From NCBI GenBank assembly GCA_017563185.1, contig JAFXIL010000152.1, positions 1 to 63,247 on the forward strand: DNA of 63,247 nt, read 5' to 3'. The DNA is from Kiritimatiellia bacterium (GTDB lineage: Bacteria; Verrucomicrobiota; Kiritimatiellia; RFP12; UBA1067). Within the stretch, counting starts at the first letter, position 1. Each line of letters opens with the position of its first letter. Both the position numbers and the translations under genes were made by a program. The notes beneath the pieces are model-generated. The model searched no databases and was not told the origin of the DNA. It saw nothing but the letters and a program-made list of their open reading frames with translations. Of this stretch, positions 15,841 to 60,550 are shown piece by piece.

Positions 15841-15872
15841 GCTCATTCTCCTCATTTTAAAATGAATCGTGG

Positions 15873-15910
15873 AAAAAAAGAAGGCGTAGCCCAGATGCCA
15901 ACCATCTGGG
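15873..15910 (-). other. 8-bp hairpin plus U7 tract in the giant-gene leader (5' stabiliser or terminator of the upstream HAD gene)
   Basis: Minus-strand RNA reads CCCAGAUG-GUUGG-CAUCUGGG, then CUACGCCUUC, then UUUUUUU. The hairpin starts about 1-2 nt after the predicted TSS. Confidence 0.4.
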
Positions 15911-15918
15911 GCGACTAT

Positions 15919-15948
15919 ATGATAGCATAAGTTACGCCCCTTCTGCAA
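15919..15948 (-). promoter_or_regulatory. candidate promoter of the giant gene
   Basis: TTGCAG (15948-15943), 18-nt spacer ending in TGC, TATCAT (15924-15919). Confidence 0.4.
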
Positions 15949-15968
15949 GCATGAGGAATTTGCAAATT

Positions 15969-16814
15969 TCAATGCACCTTGTCGAAGGTCTCGACCACTA
16001 TGGCGGGCGGCGTGCCCTTGTAGGCCGCAAGATCTTCGAGCGTGGTCTCGCCGGAGAGCACGCACACAAAGTCGACGCCCGCATTGTCGGCGATGGCCTT
16101 GTCGGTGTAGAGCCTGTCGCCAACGACGGCTATCTCCTCCGGGGCGAATTCTGCGAGCACGGGCGCGAGCAGAGTGGGGCTGGGCTTTCCGAAGACGTGG
16201 CTGGGCTTCATGCCGTTGGTGATCTCGAGAAACTTCATCATCCCGCCGATGTCCGGTATCGGGCCGCGCTCGCTTGGGCAGCAGTTGTCGGGATGCGTGG
16301 CCACGAAGTCCACGGGCGTCTGGTTCCTCGTGCGTACGGGGCACATCGGGCTCGGCGGGCAGTTGCGCATGTTCCAGAGCGACGTCGCGTCCGCGAGCTT
16401 CGCGTACGTGAGCTCCTTGTCGTACGTGAGGGCGATGAGCTCGTTGCGCTCGGGATCGTAGTCGAGCGACACTCCGGCGTCCTCCAGCCGCGCCGCCATG
16501 TGAGCCTTCACCTTCTCGCTTGCGATGAGATACACCGACTTGTACCCCTTCTCGCGTATGTACGCCTCGAGCGTGATGAGCGGCGTGAGTATCTGCTCTG
16601 GCGTCACGGGAATCGCCGCGCCCGCGATCTTCTTCATGTACTCCTCAGGACACTTCGAGGTGTTGTTCGTGAGGTAGAAGTACCTGAACCTTCCGCTATT
16701 CGTGCTGTCGATGACGAACTTCACCGCGCTCTCGATGGGGTTCGGGCCCATGAAGAGCGTGCCGTCGAGGTCGCACACAAACGCCTTCTTCTTCGTCAGA
16801 TCAAACTTGCTCAT
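15969..16814 (-). CDS. HAD-IIA family hydrolase (NagD-like sugar phosphatase)
   Basis: 281 aa from ATG 16814 (MSKFDLTKKKAFVCDLDGTLF). Motifs DLDGTL, YLTNNTSK, GKPSP and GDRLYTD. The track start at 16895 lies upstream of the predicted promoter. Confidence 0.8.
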   Translation of the reverse strand: MSKFDLTKKKAFVCDLDGTLFMGPNPIESAVKFVIDSTNSGRFRYFYLTNNTSKCPEEYMKKIAGAAIPVTPEQILTPLITLEAYIREKGYKSVYLIASEKVKAHMAARLEDAGVSLDYDPERNELIALTYDKELTYAKLADATSLWNMRNCPPSPMCPVRTRNQTPVDFVATHPDNCCPSERGPIPDIGGMMKFLEITNGMKPSHVFGKPSPTLLAPVLAEFAPEEIAVVGDRLYTDKAIADNAGVDFVCVLSGETTLEDLAAYKGTPPAIVVETFDKVH

Positions 16815-24553: not shown

Positions 24554-25615
24554 TCACTTTCGGGATGTGATCTCGGCAAGCACTCGCTTGAGGTCCTGCA
24601 CGCGGTCCTTTGCCGCCACGAGCACATGGTCGGCCGTGGACACCACAACGATGCCACGCACGCCGAGGGCGGCGATTGCCGGACCCTCCGCCACGGCCAC
24701 GGAATCCTCGCAGTCGAGCAGAGTCACCGGGCCTCTCACCACGTTTCGTCTCGCGTCTGTGCGCAGGTGCTTGTCCACCGCAGCCCACGTGCCAACGTCG
24801 TCCCATCCGAAGTCTCCGCGCGACACCAGAATGCGCGGGAACTTCTCCATCACCGCGTAGTCGAACGATATCCTCGGCAGGTCCGGATAAACCTTCGCCA
24901 TCACGGGCCCCGGCGCCTGCGCGGCGGCAATGGCCGCCTCGAGGGACGCCAGCTCAGGCGCCGCCGCGGCGAGCGCGCCCTTCATCGTGCGCACCTTCCA
25001 CACGAACATTCCCGCGTTCCACACGTACTTCCCGGAGGCGAGGTATCTTTTCGCCGTTTTCTCGCACGGCTTCTCCACGAACTTAGCCGCGCGGAAGAAC
25101 ACGGTGCGCGTGCCGAGCGGCTCCGCGCGCCCCACGCGGATGTACCCGAATCCGGTGGCCGGTTCGTTCGGCGTAACGCCCATCGTCACGATGCAGTCGG
25201 TCTTGGCCGCCGCGTCGCGCGCGTCGCGCAGCACTCTGCGGAACGCCTTCACGTCGCCCATCAGGTGGTCGGCCGTGAGAATCGCCGCCACGGCATCCTC
25301 CCCGCCGCGCGCCTCCACCACGCCGCACGCCGTGGCCACGGCGGCCGCAGTGTCGCGTCGGCATGGCTCGGCCACGATGTTCTCCTCCGGCAGCTCCGGC
25401 AGCGCCTCGCGAGTGGCCGACACAAGCGTCTCGGCCGTGACCACGATCACGCGCTCCATCGGCACCACGCCGGCCAGTCGGTCCACCGCCTGGCGGATGA
25501 GTGACTTTCCTCCGAACACGGTGAGGAACTGCTTGGGCCTGTCGGGCGTGGAGAGCGGCCAGAACCGCTCGCCGTTGCCGCCCGAAAGAATCACTGCATG
25601 GAAAGGATGCGTCAT
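24554..25615 (-). CDS. mannose-1-phosphate guanylyltransferase
   Basis: 353 aa from ATG 25615. N-terminus HAVILSGGNGERFWPLS...PKQF, followed by GYIR and FVEKP motifs. Confidence 0.85.
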   Translation of the reverse strand: MTHPFHAVILSGGNGERFWPLSTPDRPKQFLTVFGGKSLIRQAVDRLAGVVPMERVIVVTAETLVSATREALPELPEENIVAEPCRRDTAAAVATACGVVEARGGEDAVAAILTADHLMGDVKAFRRVLRDARDAAAKTDCIVTMGVTPNEPATGFGYIRVGRAEPLGTRTVFFRAAKFVEKPCEKTAKRYLASGKYVWNAGMFVWKVRTMKGALAAAAPELASLEAAIAAAQAPGPVMAKVYPDLPRISFDYAVMEKFPRILVSRGDFGWDDVGTWAAVDKHLRTDARRNVVRGPVTLLDCEDSVAVAEGPAIAALGVRGIVVVSTADHVLVAAKDRVQDLKRVLAEITSRK

Positions 25616-25634
25616 GGAGTCAGCCTTGAATGGC

Positions 25635-26333
25635 CTACGAATTGCGGCGGCGCTCGGCAAGCGCTTCGACGATGGCCACGCCCGCGCTTGTGCCGATGCG
25701 CGTGGCGCCTGCACGGATCATGTCGAACGCCGCATCGAGAGTGCGGATTCCGCCTGCAGCCTTGACGCCCATCGCCGGCCCCACCGTGCGGCGCATGAGG
25801 GCGACGTCCGCAGCGGTGGCGCCGCCAGTTCCGAATCCGGTGGACGTCTTGACGAAGTCCACGCCGGCCTTCACCGCAAGCTCGCATGTGCGCACCTTCT
25901 GCTCGTCCGTGAGATAGCACGTCTCGAGAATCACCTTAGAGATCACGCCATGCTCGCGGCATGTCTTCGCAAGGTCCTCCAGCTCGGCGAGAACGAGCGC
26001 CTCGTTGCCGCTCTGAAGCGCGCGGACGTTCTGCACCATGTCCACCTCCCCAGCGCCTCTCTCAATGGCGTCCCTGATCTCGAACGCCTTGGCTGCGGAC
26101 GTCATCTGCCCGAGCGGGAATCCCACCGCCGCTCCCACGCGCGTCTTGGAGCCCCTCAGCAGCTCTGCGCACCGTTCGACTTCGGCCGGGTTCACCGCCA
26201 CCATCGCGAAGCCGTACTCGCGCGCCTCGGCGCACAGCTTCTCTATCGGCTCGGGCCCGCCGTACGCCTTGAGGAAGGTGTGATCTATCATTCCCGCAAG
26301 CTCCTGCGGCGTAATCGTGTCAACGTCTATCAT
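25635..26333 (-). CDS. deoC: deoxyribose-phosphate aldolase
   Basis: 232 aa from ATG 26333 (GGAG 8 nt upstream; the track start is a TTG one codon earlier). DHTFLK and the Schiff-base lysine context FVKTSTGF. Confidence 0.9.
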   Translation of the reverse strand: MIDVDTITPQELAGMIDHTFLKAYGGPEPIEKLCAEAREYGFAMVAVNPAEVERCAELLRGSKTRVGAAVGFPLGQMTSAAKAFEIRDAIERGAGEVDMVQNVRALQSGNEALVLAELEDLAKTCREHGVISKVILETCYLTDEQKVRTCELAVKAGVDFVKTSTGFGTGGATAADVALMRRTVGPAMGVKAAGGIRTLDAAFDMIRAGATRIGTSAGVAIVEALAERRRNS

Positions 26334-26387
26334 CAATTAATCTCCTTTCACCATCGTTTGATGTGTCTGGCGCCTGGACACTCCAGA

Positions 26388-26417
26388 CCTAAAACCAGAA
26401 ACCAGAAACTAGAAACT
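26388..26417 (-). repeat. RGTTTY heptamer tandem repeat spanning a stop codon
   Basis: Minus strand reads AGTTTCT-AGTTTCT-GGTTTCT-GGTTTTAGG. The first units encode the last two codons and the TAG of the alcohol dehydrogenase gene. Confidence 0.8.
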
Positions 26418-27428
26418 CATCATCACCTTGAGCGCCTCTCCGGCCTTCACCGCGGCAAGCGCCTTGTCGAGCTCGGAGAGCTTGAAGCGGTGCGTGACGA
26501 ACTCGTCTGCGGAAAGTCGTCCCTCGCGGATCCACTTGCAGAGCGGCTCCATCGCCATGCGTTCGCGCCAGCGCGTGGGCCACTGGTGGATCACGAGGTT
26601 GAAGTTGTAGGGGCCCTTCCCCTTCTCGACCAGGAGGGTGGGCTGCGAGACGACGCCGTACACGCCAACGGTTCCGCCGAGCTTGATCATCGGGATGGCA
26701 GAGTTGACGATCTTCTCGCTGCCGACGGCGTCGACGATCACGTCGAACGTTCCAGCGGGGAAATCGACCTCCTCAGGGGCGAACGCGGCGTCTGCGCCCA
26801 TCTTGAGGGCGAGAGCGCGCTTGTTGGCGAGAGGATCGACGAGGCCCACCCACTTGACGCCCATGAGTTTCGTGAACTTGACGAAGCTCATGCCCACCGG
26901 CCCCGCCCCGTAGATGAGGATCTTGTCCTTGGGCTGTATTCCGAAGTCGCCAATGCCTCCATACACCTCGCGCCACGTGCAGAGGAGCGCCGCCGCCTCG
27001 GGGTCCTCCCCCTCCGGCACCGCGCGCTGGATCTCGTAGCTCTCGAACCAGCCATGCTCGGCGTCCGCCACGCCGTCGCGCACCATCGCGTCATGGTCGT
27101 TCACGAGCACGTATTCGCTGAAGCCGCCCCAGCCGGACGCCAAATCCGTACCCTCAAAGCTGAACACCATTCCGCCGATCACCCTGTCGCCGGGCTTGAA
27201 CTGCGCCACCTTCTCGCCCACTTCCACGACGATTCCGGCGTTCTCGTGCCCAAGCACAAGCGGATACTGCTCCATGCCCGGGAAGTGTCCCTCCACGAGC
27301 TTTCGGTCGGTGGCGTTGCAAAGCGCCATTACCTCGGTCTTCACGAGCGCCTGGTACGGCCCCGGTTTCGGAGTCGGCACCTCGCGCACCTCCATCTCCC
27401 CCGGGCGGGAAATCACCATCGCCTTCAT
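26409..27428 (-). CDS. zinc-dependent alcohol dehydrogenase (MDR family)
   Basis: 339 aa. GHENAG catalytic-zinc motif and GAGPVG Rossmann motif. Confidence 0.85.
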   Translation of the reverse strand: MKAMVISRPGEMEVREVPTPKPGPYQALVKTEVMALCNATDRKLVEGHFPGMEQYPLVLGHENAGIVVEVGEKVAQFKPGDRVIGGMVFSFEGTDLASGWGGFSEYVLVNDHDAMVRDGVADAEHGWFESYEIQRAVPEGEDPEAAALLCTWREVYGGIGDFGIQPKDKILIYGAGPVGMSFVKFTKLMGVKWVGLVDPLANKRALALKMGADAAFAPEEVDFPAGTFDVIVDAVGSEKIVNSAIPMIKLGGTVGVYGVVSQPTLLVEKGKGPYNFNLVIHQWPTRWRERMAMEPLCKWIREGRLSADEFVTHRFKLSELDKALAAVKAGEALKVMMSF

Positions 27429-27450
27429 CTTTCATTCTCCTTTACTTTCG

Positions 27451-27476
27451 GCAAATCGCAAAACCATAAAAACCCC
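27451..27476 (-). repeat. RGTTTY-type short repeat in an intergenic spacer
   Basis: Minus strand reads GGGGTTTTTATGGTTTTGCGATTTGC. It lies between the 318-aa ORF and the alcohol dehydrogenase gene. Confidence 0.6.
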
Positions 27477-27485
27477 GCTGAAGCT

Positions 27486-27502
27486 CGCCTTCCGAAGAGG
27501 CG
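27486..27502 (-). terminator. short GC hairpin with a UUCG-containing loop 3' of the 318-aa ORF
   Basis: Minus-strand RNA reads CGCCU-CUUCGGA-AGGCG, 13 nt after the TAG. No U tract follows, although a GUUU-rich repeat does. Confidence 0.3.
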
Positions 27503-27514
27503 CCTGCGCGTAGC

Positions 27515-28471
27515 CTACACCTTCCGCGTCTGGACCGCCAGGTTCACCACGCTCTCCAGCGCTGGCTGCTTTGAAAGCTGAACGATCTTGAACGGAAGCT
27601 GCATTCCCAGCGGACGCAGAAAGCGCATCACGCGCCCTGAGCGCACATGCAGCTCGCCCGGCACGCGCCCAGCCGCGATGAAGGCGTTCAGCAGGCGCTG
27701 CGCATGCCCCTCCCAGAGTCGCAGCAGGCCGTTCTCCTTGCCGTCCACTGACATCCTCTCCCACACCATCTTCTCGCCCGTGTCGGCGTTCACCGCCGCC
27801 AGCAGATACAGAAAGCGCGGCTTCGGCGGCGGCGTGTGGTACGCGGGGATCATCACAAAGTCAAGCTCCCACGTCTCCTTGGGGTACATCGGCAGCGCCT
27901 TGGCCTTCTCGCAGTCGGCGCGCTGCAGCGACACGCTCTCCTTGTACTGCACCACCTCCTCCTGCGGCAGTGCGAGCGGGCCGTCTATCCAACGGTCTGG
28001 CAGCACCTCCTTGCGCGCGAACATCGCCTTTTTCTCGATGTACGCGAGCGGCAGGTCGGGCTTCTCCTCCATGCGCATGAGAAGACCGTAGCATTCGTAG
28101 AGGATCGGCGCGAAGAAGGCGCGCTGCTCGCTCGTGGGCGGCAACGGCACGAAACCGGGCTCGTAGCTGAACAGCTCCACGCTTCCGCTCTTTAGCCCCA
28201 CCGCCTCGAAATGGGCAAGATCAAGCGGACTCATGCATACGCCGTAGTCGCGCACCTGGCGCGAAAGCACGTAGTCGCGGAAGGCAGGCAGGCCGGCGAA
28301 GAGCATCAGGCGCCCCACCACAGGGCCATTGCCCTTCTCGGGCACGACGGTGGCGATGTACGGCACGTCGCTCATCTGCGGCACCAGCGCCCAGTTGTGG
28401 CGGCTCGCCTTCTCCCACGGGTTGAGCCCCGCGATGGCGCGCGTTATGTCGTATGGATCGCTTCTGTCCAT
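27515..28471 (-). CDS. conserved hypothetical protein
   Basis: 318-aa ORF with a coding-like composition, lying 3 nt downstream of trxB. No family confidently recognised. Confidence 0.6.
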   Translation of the reverse strand: MDRSDPYDITRAIAGLNPWEKASRHNWALVPQMSDVPYIATVVPEKGNGPVVGRLMLFAGLPAFRDYVLSRQVRDYGVCMSPLDLAHFEAVGLKSGSVELFSYEPGFVPLPPTSEQRAFFAPILYECYGLLMRMEEKPDLPLAYIEKKAMFARKEVLPDRWIDGPLALPQEEVVQYKESVSLQRADCEKAKALPMYPKETWELDFVMIPAYHTPPPKPRFLYLLAAVNADTGEKMVWERMSVDGKENGLLRLWEGHAQRLLNAFIAAGRVPGELHVRSGRVMRFLRPLGMQLPFKIVQLSKQPALESVVNLAVQTRKV

Positions 28472-37681: not shown

Positions 37682-37740
37682 TTTTCTCTCCTTCTTTTCT
37701 TTGAACTTGAATAGCGCAATAAAACTCTTCAGATGCGCTC

Positions 37741-37770
37741 TTGCCTTACATGCCTCAATTGTTGTATAAT
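37741..37770 (+). promoter_or_regulatory. sigma70-like promoter of tRNA-Ser
   Basis: TTGCCT (37741-37746), 18-nt spacer, TATAAT (37765-37770). The tRNA 5' end lies 15 nt downstream. Confidence 0.6.
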
Positions 37771-37784
37771 ATCCGCACCTTTCA

Positions 37785-37874
37785 GGAGGGTTGGCGGAGC
37801 GGTCGATCGCGGCGGTCTTGAAAACCGTTGACCATTCACGTGGTCCGGGAGTTCGAATCTCTCACCCTCCGCCA
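37785..37874 (+). tRNA. tRNA-Ser (anticodon UGA)
   Basis: Manual cloverleaf. Acceptor stem GGAGGGT/ACCCTCC, anticodon stem GCGGT/ACCGT with loop CTTGAAA, long variable arm GACCA/TGGTC, T-loop GGGAGTTCGAATCTCTC, and an encoded 3' GCCA. Confidence 0.92.
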
Positions 37875-37878
37875 CCTG

Positions 37879-37897
37879 CCGCGCGAAGGCCGCGCGG
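37879..37897. terminator. 7-bp GC hairpin between convergent tRNA-Ser and PNP gene (possible bidirectional terminator)
   Basis: CCGCGCG-AAGGC-CGCGCGG, located 4 nt after the tRNA CCA end and 4 nt before the PNP stop. It is flanked by an A4 run only. Confidence 0.35.
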
Positions 37898-37901
37898 AAA
37901 A

Positions 37902-38720
37902 TCAGCAAGCCGTCACAAAGTCGTCGAGGAGGCCGGCCATCACGCCCTTCGCCGCCGCAGACGCGGCAATCACCTCTTCGTGGCAGAGCGGCTTCGCCGA
38001 TATGCCGGCCGCGAGATTTGAGACTAGCGAGAGCCCGGCCACCTGCATTCCGCACGCATGGGCGAACACGGCTTCGGGAACGGTGCTCATGCCCACCACG
38101 TCGGCGCCAAGGTGTCCGTACGCGCGGATCTCCGCCGGCGTCTCGAATGCCGGACCAGATGTGAACGCATACACGCCCTCCATCACGCGGAGACCGCGCT
38201 TGTTCGCCGCGCCGTGCAGCACGTCGCGCAGATGCTGCGTATAGATTTCCGTCATGTCGGGGAAACGCGCGCCCCACTCGGGATTGTGCGGACCTATGAG
38301 CGGATTGATTCCAACGGTGTTCACATGGTCGCGCAAGATCACGAAGTCGCCCGCGCGCAGCGCGGGATTGAGCCCGCCTACCGCGTTCGTGAGCAGGATC
38401 CTGCGTCCGCCCATGCGCCTGAAGAGCTCCACAGGAAGCACCACGGCCTCCCAGCCCACGCCCTCGTACCAGTGGCGGCGTCCGCAGAACGCGGCGATGC
38501 GGCGTCCTGCGCGCTCGTAGAGGCGGAACTCGCCCGCGTGGCCCGCCACCGTGGCCGCGCCAAGGCCCGGGATGTCGGCATACGAGAAACGCGCGATCGT
38601 GCGGTCGCATGTGAGGGCGTCGCCCCAGCCGCTGCCGAGAACTATCGCGAGGTCGGCGGGGCGGTTGAAGCATTCGTCCGGCAGGAATCCCGCCGCGGCG
38701 TCAAAGAACTTCGTGTCCAT
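37902..38720 (-). CDS. purine nucleoside phosphorylase (PNP/MTAP family)
   Basis: 272 aa. GSGWG, GRRHWYEG, FVILRDH and VGMSTVPE motifs. Confidence 0.88.
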   Translation of the reverse strand: MDTKFFDAAAGFLPDECFNRPADLAIVLGSGWGDALTCDRTIARFSYADIPGLGAATVAGHAGEFRLYERAGRRIAAFCGRRHWYEGVGWEAVVLPVELFRRMGGRRILLTNAVGGLNPALRAGDFVILRDHVNTVGINPLIGPHNPEWGARFPDMTEIYTQHLRDVLHGAANKRGLRVMEGVYAFTSGPAFETPAEIRAYGHLGADVVGMSTVPEAVFAHACGMQVAGLSLVSNLAAGISAKPLCHEEVIAASAAAKGVMAGLLDDFVTAC

Positions 38721-39897
38721 TCCAGGTGATCCTTCCTTCTAGCGCCGTGCACACGGGCCATGCGGAGAAGCGCATTCCGGCGAACGGCTGGTTTGATGAT
38801 TTCGTGTGAAAGAGAGACGGGTCCACGGCGCGGTTCGCCTTGAGATCCATCACCGTGAAGCTGCGCGCGGAAGGCGTCTCGCCGATGAGGGCGGCGGGGC
38901 CTGTCGTCCACCTGGCGGCCCAGTCGGCGGGGCTCATGCCCTCCCCCTCCACCATCACGCGCCATGTTATCGCGGCCGCGGTCTCGAGGCCCACTATGCC
39001 GTTTGCCGAAGTTGCGAAGCCGCCCTGCTTGCGCGAGGCGTGGTGAGGGGCATGGTCCGTCGCGAAGAGCCCCAGAGTGCCGTCCTTCACGCCTTCGCGG
39101 ATCGCCGCCACGTCCTCGCGCGTTCCAAGGGGCGGCGCCATCTTCCAGTTGGCGTCGTCGCGCGGAATGTCGTCGCACGAGAGCAGCAGATGGTGCGGCG
39201 TCGCCTCGCCCGTCACCGGCAGGCCCTCGCGCTGCGCCGAGCGTATGAGCTCCACCGTGCCGGCGCACGAGATGTGCTGCACGTGGAGCGCGCAGCCCGT
39301 CACGCGACAGATCGAGATGTCGCGCCGCACGGCCTCGGTCTCTGCCTCGGGAGGCATCGTCGGAAGGCCGGACCGGCGCGCCACGGCGCAGTCGCGCATC
39401 ACGCCGCCTGCGAGCAGAGACGGCACCACGGCGTGCTGCATCACGGGGCGGACGAGCTTTGCCGCACGGCGCATCGCCGCCTCCATCACATGGGCGTCTT
39501 CCACGAACGAACCGTCGTCCGTGAAGGCCACCGCACCCGCTGCGGCAAGCGCCTCGAGGTCTGCCACCTCGCGCCCGAGGCGCCCCTTGGTGATGCACAC
39601 GGAAGGCGCGATGCGCACGGGCAGAGACGCATCTTCGATCTGTTCGCGCAGCCACTCCGCGCTGTCGCCCGCCGGCGTGGTGTTCGGCATCGTTGTGACG
39701 CACGTGAAGCCTCCCGCTGCAGCAGCCGCTGCCCCCGTCGCGCGCGTCTCAGCCTCCGGCGTGCCGGGATCGCGGAAGTGCACGTGCACGTCGCGCAAGC
39801 CGCCCGGTACGATGAAATACCGGGATTCGTCGCGGTACCGCTCTGGCACCGCCGCGGCATCTAAAGCAGAACCATGTGTCTTGACACTGTTTGACAT
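38701..39897 (-). CDS. pyrC: dihydroorotase
   Basis: 398 aa from ATG 39897 (MSNSVK...). The track start at 39921 is a GTG that lies inside the promoter. DVHVHFRDPG metal-binding motif and TTMPNTTP. Confidence 0.85.
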   Translation of the reverse strand: MSNSVKTHGSALDAAAVPERYRDESRYFIVPGGLRDVHVHFRDPGTPEAETRATGAAAAAAGGFTCVTTMPNTTPAGDSAEWLREQIEDASLPVRIAPSVCITKGRLGREVADLEALAAAGAVAFTDDGSFVEDAHVMEAAMRRAAKLVRPVMQHAVVPSLLAGGVMRDCAVARRSGLPTMPPEAETEAVRRDISICRVTGCALHVQHISCAGTVELIRSAQREGLPVTGEATPHHLLLSCDDIPRDDANWKMAPPLGTREDVAAIREGVKDGTLGLFATDHAPHHASRKQGGFATSANGIVGLETAAAITWRVMVEGEGMSPADWAARWTTGPAALIGETPSARSFTVMDLKANRAVDPSLFHTKSSNQPFAGMRFSAWPVCTALEGRITWNGHEVL

Positions 39898-39903
39898 GGC
39901 CCT

Positions 39904-39932
39904 ATTATACCAAATTTTCACGGTGCGCGCGA
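39904..39932 (-). promoter_or_regulatory. sigma70-like promoter, leaderless geometry (pyrC)
   Basis: TCGCGC (39932-39927), 17-nt spacer, TGGTATAAT (-10 at 39909-39904), then 6 nt (AGGGCC), then ATG 39897. Confidence 0.6.
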
Positions 39933-39936
39933 AAAT

Positions 39937-40812
39937 TCAACGGGGCTCGTCATCGTCGGCAATGCCGAATCCGCGCGGACCGTATATGCCGTTGCCAGAG
40001 CTGATGAATGCGCTGTGCGTGGCCTCGTCCACCCAGCCTGGCTTTCCGCCTGCCATGTACGGCTGGTGGAAGGCCTCCACGTGGCCGTCGAGAAACGCCA
40101 TGTTGCAGTGGCGCTTCGAGCCTGCACCGTGGCGGAAGGCCTGCGTGCCGGCCTTGCGAAGCGATGCGGCGGAATTGTCGTAGTGCTTGTCCTGAAACGG
40201 CGCACGCATGAACTTGTTCGGTCCGCCCGAGTAGCCGCCATCGCCGAACACCACCACGCGATCCGGGTGGAGCACGTCGTCGAAGCGCGTGGGATACATT
40301 CGCGAGCCCTTGTCGTTTTCAACGCGGCCGAGGAAGCAGACATTGTAGTTGTAGCCGGTCATGCGGTTGCCGTCCCAGTTGTCGCTACGCTCCTGCCGGC
40401 ACTTGGGGCAGCACATCACGTCGTCCATGCGCCAAGAGTCGAACATCTCGCCGCACTGCCATCCCTTGTCCGCACCGGCGAGGCGGCGGAAGTCCCAGCA
40501 GAAAGACGCATATTCGCTCCAGGACGATATCCCATGCCGTTCCGGACGCTCCCTTGGATACAGAATCTGCGCAAGCTCGCCTTTGCAGTACGTCTCGTCA
40601 TGCGTGGAAGGCTCAATCATTCCCCATGGGAACACCCCCTCCCTTTGCGAGTACTCGAAGCATACAAGCGCCAGCTGCCGCAGATTCGACCGGCAGCCGA
40701 CGTCAAGAGCCTCCTCCTTCGCATCCATCGCAGCGGGCACCAGCAGTGCGGCGAGCAGCACGATCATGCCCACCACTATCATCAGCTCTACGAATGTGAA
40801 GCCGCGCCGCAT
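39937..40812 (-). CDS. prepilin-type N-terminal cleavage/methylation domain protein, DUF1559 / H-X9-DG-like pseudopilin
   Basis: 291 aa from ATG 40812. RRG|FTFVELMIVVGMIVLLAALL prepilin signal with Glu+5. C-terminal NMAFLDGHV motif typical of the DUF1559 family. The ATG overlaps the stop of the upstream gene (TGATG). Confidence 0.85.
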   Translation of the reverse strand: MRRGFTFVELMIVVGMIVLLAALLVPAAMDAKEEALDVGCRSNLRQLALVCFEYSQREGVFPWGMIEPSTHDETYCKGELAQILYPRERPERHGISSWSEYASFCWDFRRLAGADKGWQCGEMFDSWRMDDVMCCPKCRQERSDNWDGNRMTGYNYNVCFLGRVENDKGSRMYPTRFDDVLHPDRVVVFGDGGYSGGPNKFMRAPFQDKHYDNSAASLRKAGTQAFRHGAGSKRHCNMAFLDGHVEAFHQPYMAGGKPGWVDEATHSAFISSGNGIYGPRGFGIADDDEPR

Positions 40813-43226
40813 CAATCCAATTCCAACGCCAGTTTGAAGAACCTTCCCGAACCGGCGGCGGGCAGCGAGAACATGTTGAGCCAGGTGCCGTCGCCCTGAT
40901 CTTCAGACGAAACGAACGTCGGCACGGCGGAAGTCCATTCCGCGCCGAGGGTATCGGCCTTCTTCACCACAAGCCCCTTCGGAGTTCCGGTGAACTGGGC
41001 GGGCGAACGGAGGCCGAAGACATGCTCCGTCTTGCCGGGCGCGAACGACTCAAGCTTGAACTGCACGCTCGCTGGAACCGCTTGCGCAGGCCCAACTCCA
41101 TACAGGTAGTTGAGGGCGTTGGGCAGTCCGTTCGCCGCAGGCGCGTCTGGCGTGGCCTGCCAGGCAGTCGCCCAGTCCGTGTAGCTGCGCTCGCGCCACA
41201 GCTCATAGCCGGATGCAGGCGCGACGTCCGCCACGGCGTCGATCTCAGGCTCCGTGAAACCGGAGTCGCCGTCATCGTTCGGCTCCTCGGAATACGCGCA
41301 GGATATCTTCACATAGCGGAACCACTTGCGCCCCTGCGCGTTGACGGGCAGGCCGTCAACGTCCGCAAGATCGTACCCCGCTCCGCCGGCCGAGCCGTTG
41401 TAGCGCTGGCACAGCTCGGCGAGCGTGAGGCCTGCGCAGTCGGAGAAGTCGATACGCGGATCGACCGGAAAGGTCGCGTCGGTCTTCGCACCCCACCATC
41501 TGTTGCCGTCGTAGAGCGAGGCGTCGGCGTTGGAAGGATCGTAGCGGTGGCCTAGCGTGGGCGCAAAGCCATCGCCCGTGCGCCACTTCGAGCTCGTGTA
41601 CCAAGGACCGTCCTTGCTCTGTGCCACCTCGATGACAGACTCTTCAGAGATGCCCCCGCCCGTGAGCCGGCATTGCGCAGGGTCGTCGAGCGCAGTCATG
41701 CCGGCTGAGGACGTCTTCGTGCAGCCGGAGTTGCCGAACACGATGAAGTCCACCCCGAACGGATTGTCGGGATCGTCCACCACGTCATGGTCGAACGCGA
41801 TCGTCACATACCCCGGCTCCTTGTCGTCGGGCGAGACGAGCGAAAGGTGCAACCCCTTCGCGTATGCCGGCACCGCGGGATTTGCCACGCCGCCGTACAA
41901 ATCCGACGACACGCCGCCAATGTTCCCCGAATAGAGCGGCAAGAAGCGGGCCGGTTCGCCCAGTACGTTCTCAGGGGCCTTGAACCACGGGTGCGTGGCT
42001 CCGGTGGAGCACTCCACCACCTCGGCGCCGTAGGGCGACTCGGTGGGGGCTGCGTGCGCCGAAGGCTCGGCGGCAGCAATGGAGCCGTCCAGCGTGGAAA
42101 GATAGTCGCCTTCGTTGTACGCGAGAATCGTCCACGCTCCATCTGCAAGGCGCTGCTCGCCGATTCCCACCGACGCCCATGTGTAGGCAGTCGCGCCAGT
42201 GCGGAAGAAATTGTCCGGCTCGGTCACGAGATTGAAGTAGTGGTACACCCACGTGTTCCAGTCGTCGGGGTCCACGTAGTCCACCGAATACGGCGCAATC
42301 CACGCCGACGGATCCGACGCGGAATACGCCTTCCAGTTGTACGTCACGCCGCCTACGTCGGCCGCGTCGTATCCGAACGTGTCGAGATTGAATCCCCAGG
42401 ATTCGGACGTGATGTGCGGGACGAGTCTGCCGTCCGCCGCCGCGATCGCCTCGATCGCATCCTTCACCGTGGGCGCCTCATCGCCGTCCCAGCGGATTCC
42501 CCACGCGCGCGTCTTGCCGGCGCCCCACGAGATCGCGATTCCGGACCTCTTCTCGCCTGCTCCTGCCCAGAGCGTGATGTCGTCGAGGCGGAACGTGCGC
42601 GGTGCGGCAGCGGGCGTCTTCTCAGGCGCGAACTCGTCGACGATGTAGGACCAGCCGGTCATCTCCATGGCATACGAGGCAAAGCGCAGCGACAGCCACT
42701 GTCCGTTGACGGGGAACACCTCCGCGATGACGGCGTCGGTGCGCCTCCATTCAAGGTCTTCGAACGACTTGCCCGTAGCATACGCCGCCGCCCAGTCGTC
42801 GCCGGCCATGTACATGTTTGACTCGTCGATCTCGTCGTAGTCGTACCACGGCTGCGGGAAAAGATCGTCCTTGTCGCTCTTGGTGTACGTCTTTCCGGTA
42901 CGGAACGTGCCGCCGTCGTCGTCCACGTCGTATCCGAATCCGCTCACCCATCCTGAGTCGGATATGAATGAGGCGAGGCGGGGATCGTCGGCTGCGATCT
43001 CGTCGAGTATCGCCTTGAAGCTAGGCGCGTCGCCGTTCCAGCGGTAGCCCCAGGCGAAGGACGAGTTCATTACGCTGCCGTCGTTGAAGTCGATCACCAC
43101 GGCGCACTCGTTCGTGCCGCTCCCGACCCAGTACTTGATGTCCGTGAACGAAAAGCCCCATGACGAGGCCGACACCAGCGAAGCAACGGCAACGGCCGTT
43201 GTCGCAAACAACTTTCTGCTCTTCAT
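40812..43226 (-). CDS. secreted 804-aa protein of unknown function with duplicated N-terminal domain
   Basis: Start at ATG 43226 (MKSRKLFATTAVAVASLVSASSWG signal peptide). Two ~80-aa repeats (WVGSGTNECAVVIDF...FAWGYRWNGDAP...ILDEIAADDPRL and WAGAGEKRSGIAISW...RAWGIRWDGDEAP...AIEAIAAADGRL). Preceded by the B12 riboswitch-like leader. Confidence 0.8.
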   Translation of the reverse strand: MKSRKLFATTAVAVASLVSASSWGFSFTDIKYWVGSGTNECAVVIDFNDGSVMNSSFAWGYRWNGDAPSFKAILDEIAADDPRLASFISDSGWVSGFGYDVDDDGGTFRTGKTYTKSDKDDLFPQPWYDYDEIDESNMYMAGDDWAAAYATGKSFEDLEWRRTDAVIAEVFPVNGQWLSLRFASYAMEMTGWSYIVDEFAPEKTPAAAPRTFRLDDITLWAGAGEKRSGIAISWGAGKTRAWGIRWDGDEAPTVKDAIEAIAAADGRLVPHITSESWGFNLDTFGYDAADVGGVTYNWKAYSASDPSAWIAPYSVDYVDPDDWNTWVYHYFNLVTEPDNFFRTGATAYTWASVGIGEQRLADGAWTILAYNEGDYLSTLDGSIAAAEPSAHAAPTESPYGAEVVECSTGATHPWFKAPENVLGEPARFLPLYSGNIGGVSSDLYGGVANPAVPAYAKGLHLSLVSPDDKEPGYVTIAFDHDVVDDPDNPFGVDFIVFGNSGCTKTSSAGMTALDDPAQCRLTGGGISEESVIEVAQSKDGPWYTSSKWRTGDGFAPTLGHRYDPSNADASLYDGNRWWGAKTDATFPVDPRIDFSDCAGLTLAELCQRYNGSAGGAGYDLADVDGLPVNAQGRKWFRYVKISCAYSEEPNDDGDSGFTEPEIDAVADVAPASGYELWRERSYTDWATAWQATPDAPAANGLPNALNYLYGVGPAQAVPASVQFKLESFAPGKTEHVFGLRSPAQFTGTPKGLVVKKADTLGAEWTSAVPTFVSSEDQGDGTWLNMFSLPAAGSGRFFKLALELD

Positions 43227-43264
43227 TTTCGTGCTTTCCCTTTTATGCGAAGGTATGCTGCCGT

Positions 43265-43410
43265 GGACGCGCAATCGTCTCCTGGCTTCCGGCTTAAAGC
43301 CTCCTCCGCCGCCTTCGCGGGCCACCCGGTCCACTGGAAATGGCGGATTCGTATCCGGTCACAGTTGCGCAACAGCGCCCGAATCGCACGAGCTTCCGTT
43401 ATCCGCGTCC
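43265..43410 (-). promoter_or_regulatory. cobalamin (B12) riboswitch aptamer (candidate)
   Basis: Minus-strand RNA reads GGACGCG-GAUAACGGAAGCUCGUGCGAUUCGGGCGCUGUUGCGCAACUGUGACC...CCAGUGG...GCGAAGGC...GAAGCCAGGAGACGAUUG-CGCGUCC. It shows the conserved GGAA/GUGCGAUUC/GCUG..GCGCAACUGU core, a B12-box-like AGCCAGGAGAC, and a 7-bp closing P1 helix (GGACGCG/CGCGUCC). It begins about 8 nt after the predicted TSS. Confidence 0.75.
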
Positions 43411-43424
43411 CTGAAACGTCCAAT

Positions 43425-43454
43425 AGTATATCGCACTCCGCCCCGCGCCGTCAA
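43425..43454 (-). promoter_or_regulatory. sigma70-like promoter of the riboswitch operon
   Basis: TTGACG (43454-43449), 18-nt spacer, TATACT (43430-43425). Confidence 0.6.
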
Positions 43455-43485
43455 TCTCCGACACGCGAAATCCGGAACGCGGCAA

Positions 43486-43514
43486 TTGACGCGAAAAGGA
43501 AAATTCGGTACAAT
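43486..43514 (+). promoter_or_regulatory. sigma70-like promoter (small ORF / tilS)
   Basis: TTGACG (43486-43491), 17-nt spacer, TACAAT (43509-43514). An ATG follows 7 nt downstream. Confidence 0.6.
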
Positions 43515-43521
43515 TCTACCC

Positions 43522-43704
43522 ATGCCACGCTACTATCCATATCAATACCGCGCGCCGCGACGTCCGAGGCGCCTCACCTGGTACTCTGTGATAACGCAGA
43601 TATTCACACTCATCGGGCGCCTTGTGGGACGCGCCGCGTCAGGCCGGGGCGGCGCCGCCGCACCCGCGCCTCGCCGCGCGCCTTCCCGCCGCGCTTCCCG
43701 CTGA
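43522..43704 (+). CDS. possible leaderless small ORF (60 aa, Arg-rich with one hydrophobic helix)
   Basis: MPRYYPYQYRAPRRPRRLTWYSVITQIFTLIGRLVGRAAS... The ATG lies 7 nt after TACAAT and the TGA overlaps the tilS ATG (TGATG). Codon usage in the first half is atypical, so this region may instead be a non-coding leader. Confidence 0.3.
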   Translation: MPRYYPYQYRAPRRPRRLTWYSVITQIFTLIGRLVGRAASGRGGAAAPAPRRAPSRRASR

Positions 43705-44828
43705 TGCCTCGCATCCCTCCACATTCCGCGCAGCCCCGCAGGCGCATCGGCCTCGCCGTCTCCGGCGGGGCCGACTCCACCGCACTCCTCGTGCTGATGG
43801 CCGGCCTTCAGGCCAAGCACAACTTCGAGGCCGTTGTGCTGCACGTGGACCACGGAATCCGCGCCGACTCCGCCGAAGACGCCGCCCACGTTCGCCGCCT
43901 CGCAGAGACGTTCGGCCTGCCGTTCCACTCCACGCGCGTCAAGGTGAGACGCCGTAAAGGCGAATCGATCGAGATGGCCGCACGCCGCGTGCGGCTCGGC
44001 TTCTTCTCGAAGATGACACGCCGCCTGAAGCTCGACGCCATCGCCACCGGGCACCACGCCGACGACGTTGCCGAGACGTTCATCCTGCGCCTCGCCCGCG
44101 GCGCCGGCCCCGCCGGGCTCGCCGGGCTCAAGCGCATCTCGCATGTTGGCGACATCACCTTCATCCGCCCGCTTCTCGACCTGCGCGGCGACGACCTTCG
44201 CGCCTTCCTCCGCTCGCGCGGAATGACATGGCGCGAAGACTCCACCAACGCCGACACGTCCATCCTCCGCAACAAGGTGCGTCACGTGGTGATTCCTTGG
44301 CTCTGCAAGAACCTCGACCCGCGCATCACCGAACACCTCTGCAAATCGGCCGCCATCCTCCGCGGAGAGCTCTCGCTTGACGCCAAGGATGCACCCCCCG
44401 CCCGCCGCCCGTCCAAGGCCGATCAGCCCAAGACAAGATTCTCCCTTGAGATATCGCCCTCCACCGGATTCGAACGCCGCCCGCAGTCGATCGGCGTCTT
44501 TCCCGCAACATGCGAAATCGCCCGCAGCGCCATTTCCGGACGCTCCATCGAACTACGGTCATGGCTTCCCGGCGACCGCATAGCCCCCACCGGCATGGGC
44601 GGCCACGCGAGAAAGCTTCAGGATGTCTTCGTGACGGCCAAGGTCCCGCCAGCTCTGCGCGCCACGCTTCCCATTCTCGCCTATGCCAACTCGAACGAGG
44701 TCATCTGGGTGCCAGGCTACAGAATCGCCGCGTCTGCGGCGGTTGCCTCGCCCCAAGCTCCCAGCTGGCGCTTCACGCTGAACGAATCAGACGCGGCTAC
44801 CTCTTCTTCCCCATCCCGAAAAGCTTGA
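43704..44828 (+). CDS. tilS: tRNA(Ile)-lysidine synthetase
   Basis: 374 aa from ATG 43704 (MPRIPPHSAQPRRRIGLAVSGGADS, PP-loop SGGxDS). HHADD motif and TilS C-terminal domain. The track extension back to 43245 is rejected. Confidence 0.88.
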   Translation: MPRIPPHSAQPRRRIGLAVSGGADSTALLVLMAGLQAKHNFEAVVLHVDHGIRADSAEDAAHVRRLAETFGLPFHSTRVKVRRRKGESIEMAARRVRLGFFSKMTRRLKLDAIATGHHADDVAETFILRLARGAGPAGLAGLKRISHVGDITFIRPLLDLRGDDLRAFLRSRGMTWREDSTNADTSILRNKVRHVVIPWLCKNLDPRITEHLCKSAAILRGELSLDAKDAPPARRPSKADQPKTRFSLEISPSTGFERRPQSIGVFPATCEIARSAISGRSIELRSWLPGDRIAPTGMGGHARKLQDVFVTAKVPPALRATLPILAYANSNEVIWVPGYRIAASAAVASPQAPSWRFTLNESDAATSSSPSRKA

Positions 44829-56509: not shown

Positions 56510-59500
56510 TCAGCGCAGGAAGATGACGGTGCCGCAGGAGTACACGAGCTTGAGGCCCGTGCCGTCCTTGCGCACGCTGAACGCCTTCTGCTTCGTCTCG
56601 TCGTCAACCTGGAACTGCGCGCTGTCGGGCGGAAGCTCGGCCACACCGTCGGTCACCGCCCATGTGACGATGTACGGACTCGAGGACTTGGCGATCGCCC
56701 TCAGGTCCTCTCTGCCCGCAAGGTTCAGCGTCACGGACGCGCCATCTGCAAAGGAAACGGTGTTGCGCCCCTGCGAGAACGCGGACTTCACCGACCACGT
56801 TCCCGTCTTGCCGGAGAGGTCGATCGTCGAGCCGTCCTGCATCGTGCATCCGTAGAAGTAGTTGTGGTCCACGGCAGGCTTGAATATGCCATAGACGTTC
56901 AACGCCTCATAGCCCCGATTCTGGTCAGCGCCATACACCTGTTCGTAGTTGCGCACCGATGTGGGCAAATAAATCTCCAATGCGCTGCCAACGCGAATGT
57001 CGACGTCCCTCGCCTCCGTGGCGGAGGCGTAGAATTTGTTCAGGTATAGCCACCCGCCGGAAACGACGTCAAGCGTTCCGTTCTTTATCGTTGCGTCAAT
57101 CATGAAGAAGTATTTCCCGCCGGCGATCTGAACGGTCAAGGTATGTCCGCCAAGATCAAGCGTTGTTGCCCTGACGTTGCCGCCTGGCCGCAGACCGGTG
57201 TTGGCATTGAGAATGAATTTAGAGTTGTCCGTGAGCGTAATGGAATGGAACTGTCCCCAGCTGGACGGGAGGTCATTTCCGCAACCCTCCAGCGTGCCGC
57301 CGTCAAGCACGAACTTGTAGTCGGCATCCGCCTCGCCATAGAGAGAGTTCAAACGGAAGAGTCCATCTGCATGCACAGTTGTCGTGTTTCCTCTGGCGCC
57401 AAGCACCCAGCGGTCAGGCGAGTAGTGCTGGACCGGAAACACTTCGAACGTGCCGCCATAGACGTCGGTTCCTCCTGTGTACGTCTGCTGGACCTTCTCG
57501 GCCACGAAAGTTCCCTTTCCGTCCTTCACCAGCTTCACGTTGCCGCTGATTGCAACGGTGCTGTTCGTGACGAAGAGACCCTCCGCCACATCCACGTGCA
57601 GCTCGGCGCCTGCGCTCTCGGAGGAGTTGGCGACCGATGAGATCGGATAACCCTGATCGGCAAGGCCGGCGATTTTGACGGAATGCCCGTTCAGGTCGAA
57701 CGTCACGCCGTCGGCGAACATCACGCTGCCGAGAGTGCGCAGATCGCAGTCCGCATCGAAAACGACTGACGTCGTGACGACCGAAGGCAGCACGCCCTCG
57801 ACGACATCGCCATTCAGATTGCGGCACACCCAGTTTGCGGGGTTTGAGGGCGCTTCGTCCTCCGCCGCGGTCCACACGGCCGACCGCGCAACGTTCGGAG
57901 AGTTGACGTGGATTTCCGTGCCGTCGTCCGACACGGTGAGAATGTGCCCTTCCCCGCCGGAAAGCGACACATGGTCGTAGAGAGTTCCGCCCGTCAGCAG
58001 CGACACGCTTCCGAACTTGATCACCGCATGCTCCCTCTCCGCGAGTTTTGAGACGTCGAGAACCAGTCGGCCCTTGTCGTGGATCGAGAGCGTTCCCGTA
58101 ACCACGCCGCCGGGCGGCAGGGAAAGAGTCGCCCCATAGCCGATCGAGATCTCGTCCAGCGTCTCGATCTTCCGCTGAAGCGCAATAGTTCCAGGGCCGT
58201 ACACTCCCAGCTTGCCCGCAAGCGGCGCCGAGATCTTTGCCTCGACGTCTTCGGACGCGAATAGTCCCGCAACGCCTGGCGTGAGCGTGCCGCCCGAAAG
58301 CTCCGCGTTCGCCGTAAAGCCAACGCCGTCGGCCGTTGCGCCCTCGGCGGGAACCGCAGCATCCGCGTTGAACACGCGGTACTTGCCCGCACTCCACTCG
58401 GCATCGCCCGCGCCCGCCCAGCCGCAGGATCGCGTCCACTTCTTCTCGATGCGCTCGCGGATCATCTTGCGCGTAAGGCCGGAGACAGGAGTGGTGAGAA
58501 TCAGAAGTTCGGAGATCGCGCGGCCGCCGTTGCGGTCGTTGCACCAGCGGTCGGCGGAGATGGCGGACGCCGTGAGATTCTCGAACGACGCCACGTCGAA
58601 CACGTGCGTGCCGTAAGGCGGACGTTCGGTCCACATGCACGACACAGGCTCGCCGTCGCAGTACATCGGCCCTTGCCTGTATCCGGTTGCGGCAGTGCCG
58701 CTGGGGCTGTAGCAGCCAAATTCGCTTCCCTGATAGCCACGGTGGAAGTGAAACGAGTCCGCATTCTGGATCACCTCGTTCTTACCGTCGGCAAGGAAGA
58801 ACGCATCTTTGTCGCGCACGATATCCATCGCCCAGAAAACGCTGCGGACATTTGTGAGGCGCGTGAAGTACATGTCTATGTAGGAGCCATGGGGACCCAT
58901 GAGGAACGCGGGCACTCCGTTCGTGTAGCCGTACGAGCCGGGGCTGCAGGTTCGCGCATTGTTGTCCAGGTATAGAGTAGAGGGCTTCACGAGATCAGTT
59001 CCAGAGCCTTGGTTCTTCCACCCCACGATGTCGCTGCCGGAGTAGTTGAAGTTGCTGACGGACGATGCGTCCACATGCACGGGCGCGTTGGCGATGAGCG
59101 CGTCCACGTATTCCTCCGAAGGGCTCCATTTCTCCGCCAGCAGCTTCTCGATGCCGATGCGGTCCTCGTCTGAAAGCTCGCTCGAGAACGTGAATAGCTC
59201 CGCCACGCGCTTGCCACCGTTGCGGTTGGAAATGTTGCGGTCCTGGCCAAGAGTGCTCCACTCGCAGTTCTGAGACGAGCTAATGGTGTAAACACTCAGA
59301 CCGCCGGCAGGTTCTGGATACTCGACATCCGGCTTGGCTATCTTAATGCCGTTCACCCAGACTGCGCCGTACTTGTAGATGTAGCTGTGCGCAGGGTTGA
59401 AGTACACGCCGCCGCCGCCGCGGTGGAAGCGGTAGGAGGCGTTCGGGCTGTCGCCCAGCCAGAAGGCATGCTCGTTGCGATCGATCATCTCCGCCACCAA

Positions 59501-60502: not shown

Positions 60503-60550
60503 GCAAGAACCTCTTTCCACAAATGAATGCCAGCCATGCTGAATTCCGCC

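Follow-up and report, generated by a model that had tools for sequence, protein, structure and literature searches.

A stretch of 63,247 nucleotides (nt; positions 1 to 63,247 of contig JAFXIL010000152.1) of a Kiritimatiellia bacterium (assembly GCA_017563185.1), referred to below in its full length as the window, carries on its minus strand a cobalamin riboswitch followed by two genes, the first encoding an exported protein of 804 amino acids (aa) and the second a prepilin-like protein of 291 aa. A first-pass annotation, made by a model from the letters of the sequence, had described this pair as a riboswitch-controlled operon with no known B12 gene and had proposed that it specifies a pseudopilus-associated device for corrinoid capture. 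All elements of the gene pair that it listed were confirmed in place, among them the 804-aa open reading frame (ORF) with its signal peptide. The features on which the analysis below is based are the following.

43425-43454, minus strand: sigma-70-like operon promoter, TTGACG-18 nt-TATACT (consensus scan, 10/12 matches)
43264-43412, minus strand: cobalamin riboswitch aptamer (RF00174 match at 43277-43397, with the P1 stem extending the ends to 43412 and 43264)
40812-43226, minus strand: gene for the 804-aa exported multidomain protein, the first regulated gene, from the ATG at 43226 to the stop codon at 40814-40812
43155-43226, minus strand: Sec-type signal peptide, residues 1 to ~24 (MKSRKLFATTAVAVASLVSASS, judged by eye)
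42630-43154, minus strand: module copy 1, residues 25-199 (internal repeat, BLASTP E = 1e-12; boundaries from a hidden Markov model [HMM])
42072-42593, minus strand: module copy 2, residues 212-385 (internal repeat; HMM boundaries)
41217-42053, minus strand: BtuH-like core, residues ~392-670, predicted from profile comparison to be probably corrinoid-binding
40815-41216, minus strand: C-terminal tail, residues ~671-804, short helices and a beta-sandwich ending in FFKLALELD (AlphaFold2 secondary structure)
39937-40812, minus strand: gene for the 291-aa prepilin-like protein, best placed in a divergent DUF1559 branch, with the start MRRG/FTFVE (the slash marks the cleavage site) and NMAFLDGHV near the end
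39895-39912, minus strand: pyrC border, outside the system, comprising an extended -10 element (TGgTATAAT, 39912-39904) and the ATG at 39897 (read from the sequence)

Riboswitch and operon layout

The Rfam covariance model RF00174 scores 61.2 bits at this locus, compared with a gathering score of 31.5 bits (E = 1e-12). The match is local, covering model positions 47-167, as it is in close relatives, and the sequence shows a P1 helix of 7 bp in which GGACGCG (43412-43406) pairs with CGCGTCC (43270-43264). The aptamer begins 13 nt downstream of the promoter, and the ATG at 43226 lies 37 nt past P1, placing the element in the 5' leader of the 804-aa gene. The riboswitch call is well founded. In five related loci the TATACTAT element of the operon promoter is kept directly 5' of the aptamer. 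A terminator scan revealed nothing terminator-like between the aptamer and the ATG at 43226, suggesting that the riboswitch acts at translation initiation; minimum-free-energy folding of the leader was uninformative (z = 0.7).

The TGA of the 804-aa ORF (40814-40812) and the ATG of the 291-aa ORF have one base in common (TGATG), the stop/start overlap noted in the first-pass annotation, and the second gene is translationally coupled to the first through it. The next gene, pyrC (NCBIfam TIGR00857, 305.8 bits), starts at an ATG 6 nt past its own extended -10 element, and the scan detected no terminator-like site between the pseudopilin gene and pyrC. Among relatives the gene 3' of the pair varies, being pyrC in L001, a rhamnosidase gene in L002, and btuFCD-type genes in L006, and the two-gene unit is therefore the conserved part. 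Given this variation and the separate -10 element of pyrC, the suggestion that the operon is limited to two genes is plausible.

Other promoter-like sites were seen on the plus strand at both ends of the pair. One (TTGACG-17 nt-TACAAT, 43486-43514) stands back-to-back with the riboswitch promoter and probably serves the divergent tilS gene. Taken from its first ATG, the listed tilS ORF (43245-44828) overlaps the riboswitch region on the opposite strand, and its true start therefore probably lies further downstream. The other, a near-consensus sigma-70 promoter (TTGACA-16 nt-TATTAT, 11/12 matches, 39881-39908), reuses the AT-rich -10 element of pyrC and is directed, in antisense orientation, at the genes for the pseudopilin and the binder; chance or an antisense transcript could account for it.

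Recurrence of the riboswitch, binder, and pseudopilin

The three-way linkage of riboswitch, binder (the 804-aa protein and its counterparts), and pseudopilin is conserved. The two-gene cassette recurs in well over a hundred bacteria of the Planctomycetes-Verrucomicrobia-Chlamydiae (PVC) group, and the 804-aa protein has 125 homologues, mainly from gut or rumen Kiritimatiellia. Limisphaera sp. 4302-co and the Phycisphaeraceae chromosome CP060234 are examples of carriers. In all five contexts anchored on this protein, RF00174 is found directly upstream on the same strand. Genomes anchored on the ~175-aa module that is repeated in the protein carry it at the gathering threshold in 26 of 32 cases, and these 26 represent at least five phyla, with members from Kiritimatiellia, Verrucomicrobiota, Planctomycetota, Lentisphaerae, Armatimonadota, Chloroflexaceae, and Bacteroidota. 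Two further module loci score just below the threshold (30.4 and 29.6 bits) at the expected place, and the score at locus L010 reaches 70.7 bits. Homologues of the 804-aa protein are thus recurrently preceded by cobalamin riboswitches, as the proposal of a B12-responsive system had anticipated.

The pseudopilin recurs in the same setting. A simple prepilin regular expression missed many partners, and we used instead an HMM seeded with the 291-aa protein, which in 52 of 87 loci identified a full-length, same-strand homologue next to the gene for the module or for the BtuH-like unit. In the subset of genome loci with neither BtuB nor Bacteroidota-type BtuH genes (mostly PVC or Armatimonadota), the pseudopilin is present in 46/56, and the ten negative loci include five contigs that end at the module gene, two Bacteroidales type IX secretion system (T9SS) loci, and one Chloroflexaceae metagenome-assembled genome (MAG). 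In a reverse test, a metagenome scan with the pseudopilin subfamily motif yielded 303 relatives, from which 80 loci were kept and 63 were testable; a BtuH-like gene adjoins the pseudopilin gene in 61 of these 63. A riboswitch was present in 10 of 12 metagenome loci anchored on the pseudopilin. The subfamily is therefore tied to B12 elements from its own side as well, and these comparisons strongly indicate that the B12 link is recurrent.

These data also bear on the possibility that the juxtaposition arose by chance, the riboswitch being a relic or serving another target and both ORFs being unrelated to B12. Within 683,819 bases of related loci, all 45 RF00174 matches lie on the target strand and upstream, with none elsewhere, and the arrangement is conserved across phyla, which effectively refutes such an explanation. 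Because the same arrangement, riboswitch included, is found in dozens of unrelated contigs, the association of the gene pair with its riboswitch is not chance.

Domain make-up of the 804-aa protein

The 804-aa protein combines two ~175-aa modules, a ~280-aa BtuH-like core, and a C-terminal tail in a single chain. It has no Pfam or NCBIfam match at E ≤ 0.01, and neither the whole protein, nor its halves, nor the module directly matches any entry in Pfam, NCBIfam, or the PDB sequences. The AlphaFold2 model of the whole protein has a predicted local distance difference test (pLDDT) score of 86.7 and a predicted template modelling (pTM) score of 0.80, with pLDDT below 50 for residues 1-22; the signal peptide is type I-like, having no lipobox cysteine. 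In many relatives (P0005-P0008, L004, and L006) the BtuH-like core has a gene of its own (~430 aa), flanked on one side by a modules-only gene and on the other by that of the pseudopilin. Links to BtuJ/DUF4465 and to the BtuG/BtuK (DUF5074) propeller were weighed but rejected, there being no Pfam match in the 804-aa protein or its parts.

The tail has no family match, and its C-terminal FFKLAL motif is conserved in the alignment consensus; the tail might serve PVC bacteria specifically as a C-terminal domain for sorting or attachment. In distant relatives, including L033 and L020, a DxDGDGxxNxxEYxxGTDP-type (thrombospondin-like) motif precedes the FFKLAL(D/E) beta-sandwich of the tail.

A probable remote homologue of the BtuH B12-binding domain

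BtuH is a surface-exposed B12-binding lipoprotein of Bacteroides thetaiotaomicron (PDB 7BIZ; PMC8941943, PMC13616437), and residues ~392-670 of the 804-aa protein are, with good probability, a remote homologue of its B12-binding domain. An HMM built from PVC sequences only matches Bacteroidota BtuH-type proteins of ~400 aa at E ~1e-6, and these proteins match 7BIZ (BtuH2 with cyanocobalamin) at E = 3e-48, as well as the 663-aa YncE-family chain 8BLW_B at E = 2e-79. When the PVC core and BtuH were compared with hhalign, they aligned over 116 columns with a probability of 95.9% (E = 5e-9), compared with 0.2-2.5% for controls using reversed sequence and unrelated families, and at low stringency the two are collinear across the whole domain. 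A Bacteroidota BtuH HMM searched against 8,023 ORFs gave, as its sole sub-threshold matches, twelve PVC ORFs that carry the core. Two motifs, GGYVTxxFDH...DFxVFGN and EPGxVxVS, are common to the core family and BtuH, and alignment at low stringency adds the terminal acidic strand.

In BtuH2, a two-metal site with the ligands Asn-399, Glu-406, Asp-522, Ser-582, and Glu-584 holds the nucleotide-loop phosphate of the corrinoid (PMC13616437; the numbering of the 7BIZ chain is offset by +100 from the residue numbers of that review, as judged from QF = 333/334, GNAF = 398-401, and STE = 582-584). In the confident part of the alignment, Asn-399 is matched by the family-invariant Asn of FGN and Glu-406 by the Glu of EPG. 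A match to Glu-584, namely the Glu of PE(V/I)D, emerges at low stringency only, and Asp-522 and Ser-582 have no confidently placed counterpart in the core alignment.

Since residues ~392-670 appear to be homologous to BtuH, the 804-aa protein is predicted to belong to a known functional class, the accessory corrinoid-binding proteins. The statement that the operon has no known B12 gene is thus only partly right, since the protein probably contains a remote but specific homologue of the Bacteroides BtuH B12-binding domain. Like BtuH, it would be an accessory corrinoid binder under riboswitch control. It differs from BtuH in having neither a lipobox nor a PKD stalk, in being encoded without BtuB or BtuG, in the fusion of its core to two modules and an extra C-terminal tail, and in its pseudopilin partner.

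A widespread module with a possible likeness to animal B12 carriers

Copies 1 and 2 of the module have invariant W-G-x-R-W, D, Y, and W positions in common. Pfam searches at E ≤ 1 returned no match for any of 35 modules, DUF4430 (PF14478) included, and a search of PDB sequences at E ≤ 10 was likewise negative. The structure predicted by AlphaFold2 for the module alone has a pLDDT of 93.6 and a pTM of 0.89. In a Foldseek comparison of this model with the PDB, eight of the nine top matches were intrinsic factor, transcobalamin, or 3u7z (DUF4430-type), with haptocorrin lower (probability 0.87-0.99, TM score 0.52-0.62 normalised to the small targets), and the full-length model matched an isolated transcobalamin beta domain with probability 1.00 and a TM score of 0.69-0.71. 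Among PDB entries, the modelled fold thus comes closest to transcobalamin and intrinsic factor in their B12-binding beta domain, a resemblance that we take as a fold-level lead and not as proof, because the Foldseek E values are poor (0.03-0.4). Compared with its best structural matches (5NP4, 2PMV, 4KKI, and 3U7Z, representing transcobalamin, intrinsic factor, haptocorrin, and bacterial DUF4430-type proteins), the module carries an additional beta-sheet half, can be repeated in tandem as many as seven times, and has no alpha domain, the part that completes the B12 pocket in the eukaryotic carriers.

The module is widespread. A profile search of 1.84 billion representative proteins found it in 1,405 clusters at E ≤ 1e-3 and in 990 at E ≤ 1e-10 (clusters counted at 50% identity), and a scan of species-representative genomes found it in 281 stretches. 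Its hosts are Kiritimatiellia, Verrucomicrobiota, Planctomycetota, Lentisphaerae, Chthonomonas, one Chloroflexaceae MAG, and many Bacteroidota, among them Chryseobacterium, Epilithonimonas, Flavobacterium, Tannerella, and Dysgonomonas. It is always N-terminal in an exported protein, in one to seven copies, and is followed by stalks or surface-sorting devices such as Big_2, He_PIG/Flg_new_2, T9SS C-terminal domains, or PEP-CTERM. In the Bacteroidales loci L008 and L080 the riboswitch lies directly 5' of single genes built from nothing but module repeats and a T9SS tail. Chryseobacterium-type genomes encode a fusion of the module to a DUF5074 propeller with homology to PDB 9S6C (E = 8e-16), which is BtuK1 bound to cyanocobalamin (PMC13616437), and the fusion gene lies in operons of the order riboswitch, BtuB, DUF5074, BtuH-like. 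These genes and fusions therefore provide independent support for the suggestion that the module itself has a B12-related job, and the module is a good candidate for a new fold for corrinoid binding, related to that of the animal B12 carriers.

Repeated modules on long stalk domains (Big_2, He_PIG, Flg_new_2) also have an adhesin-like look, and the cassette could in principle specify a B12-repressed surface structure unrelated to uptake, for example an adhesin for B12 producers or some other function required when B12 is scarce. The BtuH homology, the fusion to a BtuK-like propeller, the position of the module in BtuB operons, and the linkage to btuFCD genes all point to corrinoid handling, and we consider such a structure very unlikely.

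The pseudopilin partner

Few protein families of PVC bacteria are as large as the DUF1559-type pseudopilins. The 291-aa protein has the GFTFVE motif of a prepilin, it matches TIGR02532 above the cut-off (16.9 bits, cut-off 16.3) and the N_methyl model weakly, and PF07596 (DUF1559/SBP_bac_10) aligns with residues 31-73 only, scoring 18.8 bits, below the cut-off of 23.3. Within its subfamily, 21 of 24 members match PF07596 at E < 0.01 (best 3e-13), and the Planctomycetota counterpart is a bona fide DUF1559 protein (141 bits). On these profile scores the subfamily would best be called a divergent DUF1559 branch. The DUF1559 label given in the first-pass annotation therefore stands on weaker ground for this particular copy, which falls below the Pfam threshold. 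Invariant in the subfamily alignment are F+1, E+5, WDF, CP, TGYNYN, FGDG, MRAP, AGTQxFRH, and DGH. The 291-aa protein has the corresponding FRH...NMAFLDGHV, with no match to NCBIfam TIGR04294 (H-X9-DG-type) at E ≤ 0.01.

A G/F-x-x-x-E motif followed by a hydrophobic helix is common to the 291-aa protein, the pseudopilins of the type II secretion system (T2SS; GspG-K), and the competence protein ComGC. The similarity to GspG-K and ComGC is confined to the first ~45 residues, beyond which lies a head of ~260 aa with motifs of its own; consistent with this, TIGR01710 (GspG) scores 24.3 bits against a cut-off of 88.85 and aligns with residues 3-49 only. Because the head is large, it suggests that the protein is a tip or minor subunit. 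Unlike the genes for GspG-K and ComGC, the 291-aa gene lies outside any gsp/pil cluster and is coupled to a cargo gene under riboswitch control.

Our full-text literature searches found no link of pseudopilins, prepilin-type proteins, or DUF1559 to B12, and DUF1559 is mentioned there in four papers only, with no search tying it to a function. The nearest analogy comes from the verrucomicrobium Verruconatronum alginivorum, in which an alginate-induced PulG-like pseudopilin is encoded in an alginate locus and 67 paralogues are encoded in the genome (PMC13274419). Like that pseudopilin, an example of the expanded PulG-like/DUF1559 paralogues of PVC bacteria, the 291-aa protein is encoded in a substrate-specific locus and regulated together with it. 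The present case differs from that of V. alginivorum (PMC13274419) in that the substrate is named through the riboswitch and the partner is a predicted binding protein, not an enzyme.

Importer genes and comparison with Bacteroidota operons

Genes of the BtuF, BtuC, and BtuD types (Peripla_BP_2, FecCD, and ABC_tran) follow the pseudopilin gene in L006/7, L032, and L093, and FecCD was found in 26 loci. In L006/7 and L093 the order is binder, pseudopilin, BtuF-BtuC fusion, and ATPase, which, like the ~260-aa head with its invariant polar and aromatic motifs, would suit a membrane-tethered periplasmic shuttle, in which a pseudopilin anchored in the inner membrane takes the corrinoid from the binder with its head and passes it to BtuF/BtuCD, with no fibre being formed. 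A mere anchor would have no need of a strictly conserved prepilin cleavage motif and Glu+5, and the surface-sorting tails on the binders of other lineages also speak against a periplasmic route; we judge a shuttle of this kind to be improbable.

The Bacteroidota operons that contain the module have the order riboswitch, TonB-dependent receptor (Plug and barrel), DUF5074 propeller, BtuH-like protein, and module protein, and the BtuH-type gene is immediately 5' of the module gene in 20 loci. DUF5074 is confined to the Bacteroidota relatives, and T9SS or PEP-CTERM sorting tails are present on other binder architectures. Genes for BtuB-type TonB-dependent receptors occur in 22 Bacteroidota loci, and none lies inside any PVC riboswitch unit. 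The one TonB-dependent receptor candidate in a PVC locus (L010) was set aside as a lone weak match upstream of the riboswitch and outside the regulated unit. Locus L072, labelled as a Ruminococcus flavefaciens MAG, was rejected as a Firmicutes case, its T9SS tails and BtuB operon being of Bacteroidota type; the label is probably a binning or labelling error.

In Bacteroides, the riboswitch-repressed accessory corrinoid binders BtuG, BtuH, BtuJ, and BtuK feed the importer (PMC13616437, PMC8941943). The logic of this relay (BtuJ/H/K/G to BtuB to BtuFCD), in which B12-repressed exported binders of high affinity feed an importer, is one that the cassette is predicted to share, and in Flavobacteriia and Bacteroidales the module is itself a component of Bacteroides-type Btu operons, fused to a BtuK-like propeller. 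The units of PVC bacteria and Armatimonadota differ from the relay in having a pseudopilin in place of the TonB-dependent transporter and the propeller lipoproteins.

This replacement raises the question of whether the pseudopilin could itself serve import. Competence pseudopili take up DNA, and by analogy a retractile fibre, of the kind built by the T2SS or by type IV pili (T4P) and carrying the pseudopilin as its specificity subunit, might pull the corrinoid or the loaded binder through a secretin and so replace BtuB. BtuB and pseudopilin genes are indeed mutually exclusive at the loci (22 Bacteroidota loci with BtuB, 0 PVC riboswitch units), PVC operons may hold an inner-membrane importer but no outer-membrane transporter, Glu+5 is invariant, as filament assembly needs, and B12 is too large for general porins. 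However, nothing points to retraction ATPases, secretins, or an uptake role, the absence of BtuB is read at the loci only, and a role in export or display accounts for the same linkage, as the alginate case illustrates (PMC13274419). Overall, we regard an import fibre as rather unlikely. The broader notion that PVC bacteria and Armatimonadota import B12 by a pseudopilus instead of BtuB and that, by extension, DUF1559 paralogues are substrate-specific adaptors of a general pilus-based uptake system is correspondingly doubtful; if it were true, hundreds of DUF1559 paralogues would serve pilus-based uptake of nutrients in general.

Proposed function of the cassette

We think it likely, from the gene linkage and the domain assignments, that the pair specifies a B12-repressed corrinoid-scavenging cassette coupled to pseudopilus machinery. 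The pseudopilus-associated capture device imagined in the first-pass annotation is in keeping with the gene linkage and with the btuFCD-type genes of some operons. When intracellular cobamide is low, the riboswitch would leave the leader open and both genes would be expressed, the second by translational coupling. The 804-aa protein would be exported by Sec and would present three predicted corrinoid-binding units, namely two transcobalamin-beta-like modules and the BtuH-like domain. The pseudopilin, which has the Phe+1 and Glu+5 required for processing and for insertion into a filament, together with a bulky head of ~260 aa such as tip or minor pilins typically have, would couple the binder to a T2SS/T4P-like envelope machine, allowing export and surface display and possibly inward hand-over of the ligand. 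The captured corrinoid would then enter through an ATP-binding cassette importer of the BtuFCD type, whose genes belong to the operon itself in some relatives and, in this genome, presumably lie elsewhere. Export or display combined with hand-over seems the most likely role for the pseudopilin, a choice based partly on the analogous alginate-induced PulG-like pseudopilin (PMC13274419).

Several observations weigh against this reading. On the side of the core, the link to BtuH is seen at the profile-profile level only: the PVC core profile fails to retrieve 7BIZ from the PDB, the 804-aa protein itself is not matched by the Bacteroidota BtuH HMM, and 7BIZ is outside the top 50 Foldseek matches of the full-length model, which gave no confident match for the C-terminal half. 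At two motif positions this copy has diverged, with FGNSGC and SEES where the family consensus is FGNAF and EPG. On the side of the module, its sequence is not similar to DUF4430, to transcobalamin, or to any chain in the PDB, and no Foldseek match of the module model reaches E ≤ 0.001, with root-mean-square deviations of 6-9 Å. A partial survey of the window recognised no T2SS or T4P machinery gene and no prepilin peptidase, and some PEP-CTERM-anchored binders keep the pseudopilin, so that a simple anchoring role would be insufficient to explain it. Finally, the linkage has exceptions. L013 and L015 carry the full cassette (modules, BtuH-like gene, and pseudopilin) without RF00174, even at E ≤ 0.01, which could be due to riboswitch loss, a divergent variant, or another regulator, and L027 and L067 have no pseudopilin within the available flanks.

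Other features of the window and of related loci

Elsewhere in the window, a giant ORF of 3,665 codons (5347-16344, minus strand) has as its sole Pfam match a GDSL-like lipase/acylhydrolase segment at residues ~1926-2125, and two further large ORFs, of 1,336 aa (56510-60520, minus strand) and 883 aa (24930-27581, plus strand), have no Pfam match at E ≤ 0.001. A tRNA-Ser(UGA) with a long variable arm (37785-37874, plus strand) lies between the rhamnosidase gene and an ORF of ~314 codons (37729-38673, minus strand), the syntenic counterpart of which in L001 carries PNP_UDP_1; the position of the tRNA is also syntenic in L001, a relative with 91% identity.

Among the related loci, L155, L157, and L164 (~5,900-10,700; soil or mat metagenomes) have a BtuH-like gene and a pseudopilin gene followed by genes with apparently MoxR-like N termini and by two further large genes. 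A thiamine pyrophosphate riboswitch a few kilobases downstream of the cassette in L098 (9340-9440, plus strand) and a DUF805b RNA motif near the Tannerella locus in L070 (4283-4319, minus strand) are incidental.

Conclusions

Riboswitch-repressed accessory corrinoid binders that feed an importer were already known from Bacteroides. New here are an unnamed module that spans at least five phyla, a BtuH-type domain that occurs in divergent form outside the Bacteroidota, and a dedicated pseudopilin partner. With about 1,400 clusters, the module is widespread, and it belongs to the B12 regulon in no fewer than five phyla.

Competition within gut and rumen communities is shaped by the scavenging of B12, the machinery of which is, to our knowledge, understood only for Proteobacteria and Bacteroides. 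The cassette described here is a candidate for the means by which Kiritimatiellia, Verrucomicrobiota, Planctomycetota, and Lentisphaerae scavenge B12. It would also offer a first hint at what a large orphan family of pilin-like proteins does: through the riboswitch, one DUF1559 subfamily is linked with a named ligand and with a single partner protein, which makes the function of the family directly testable.

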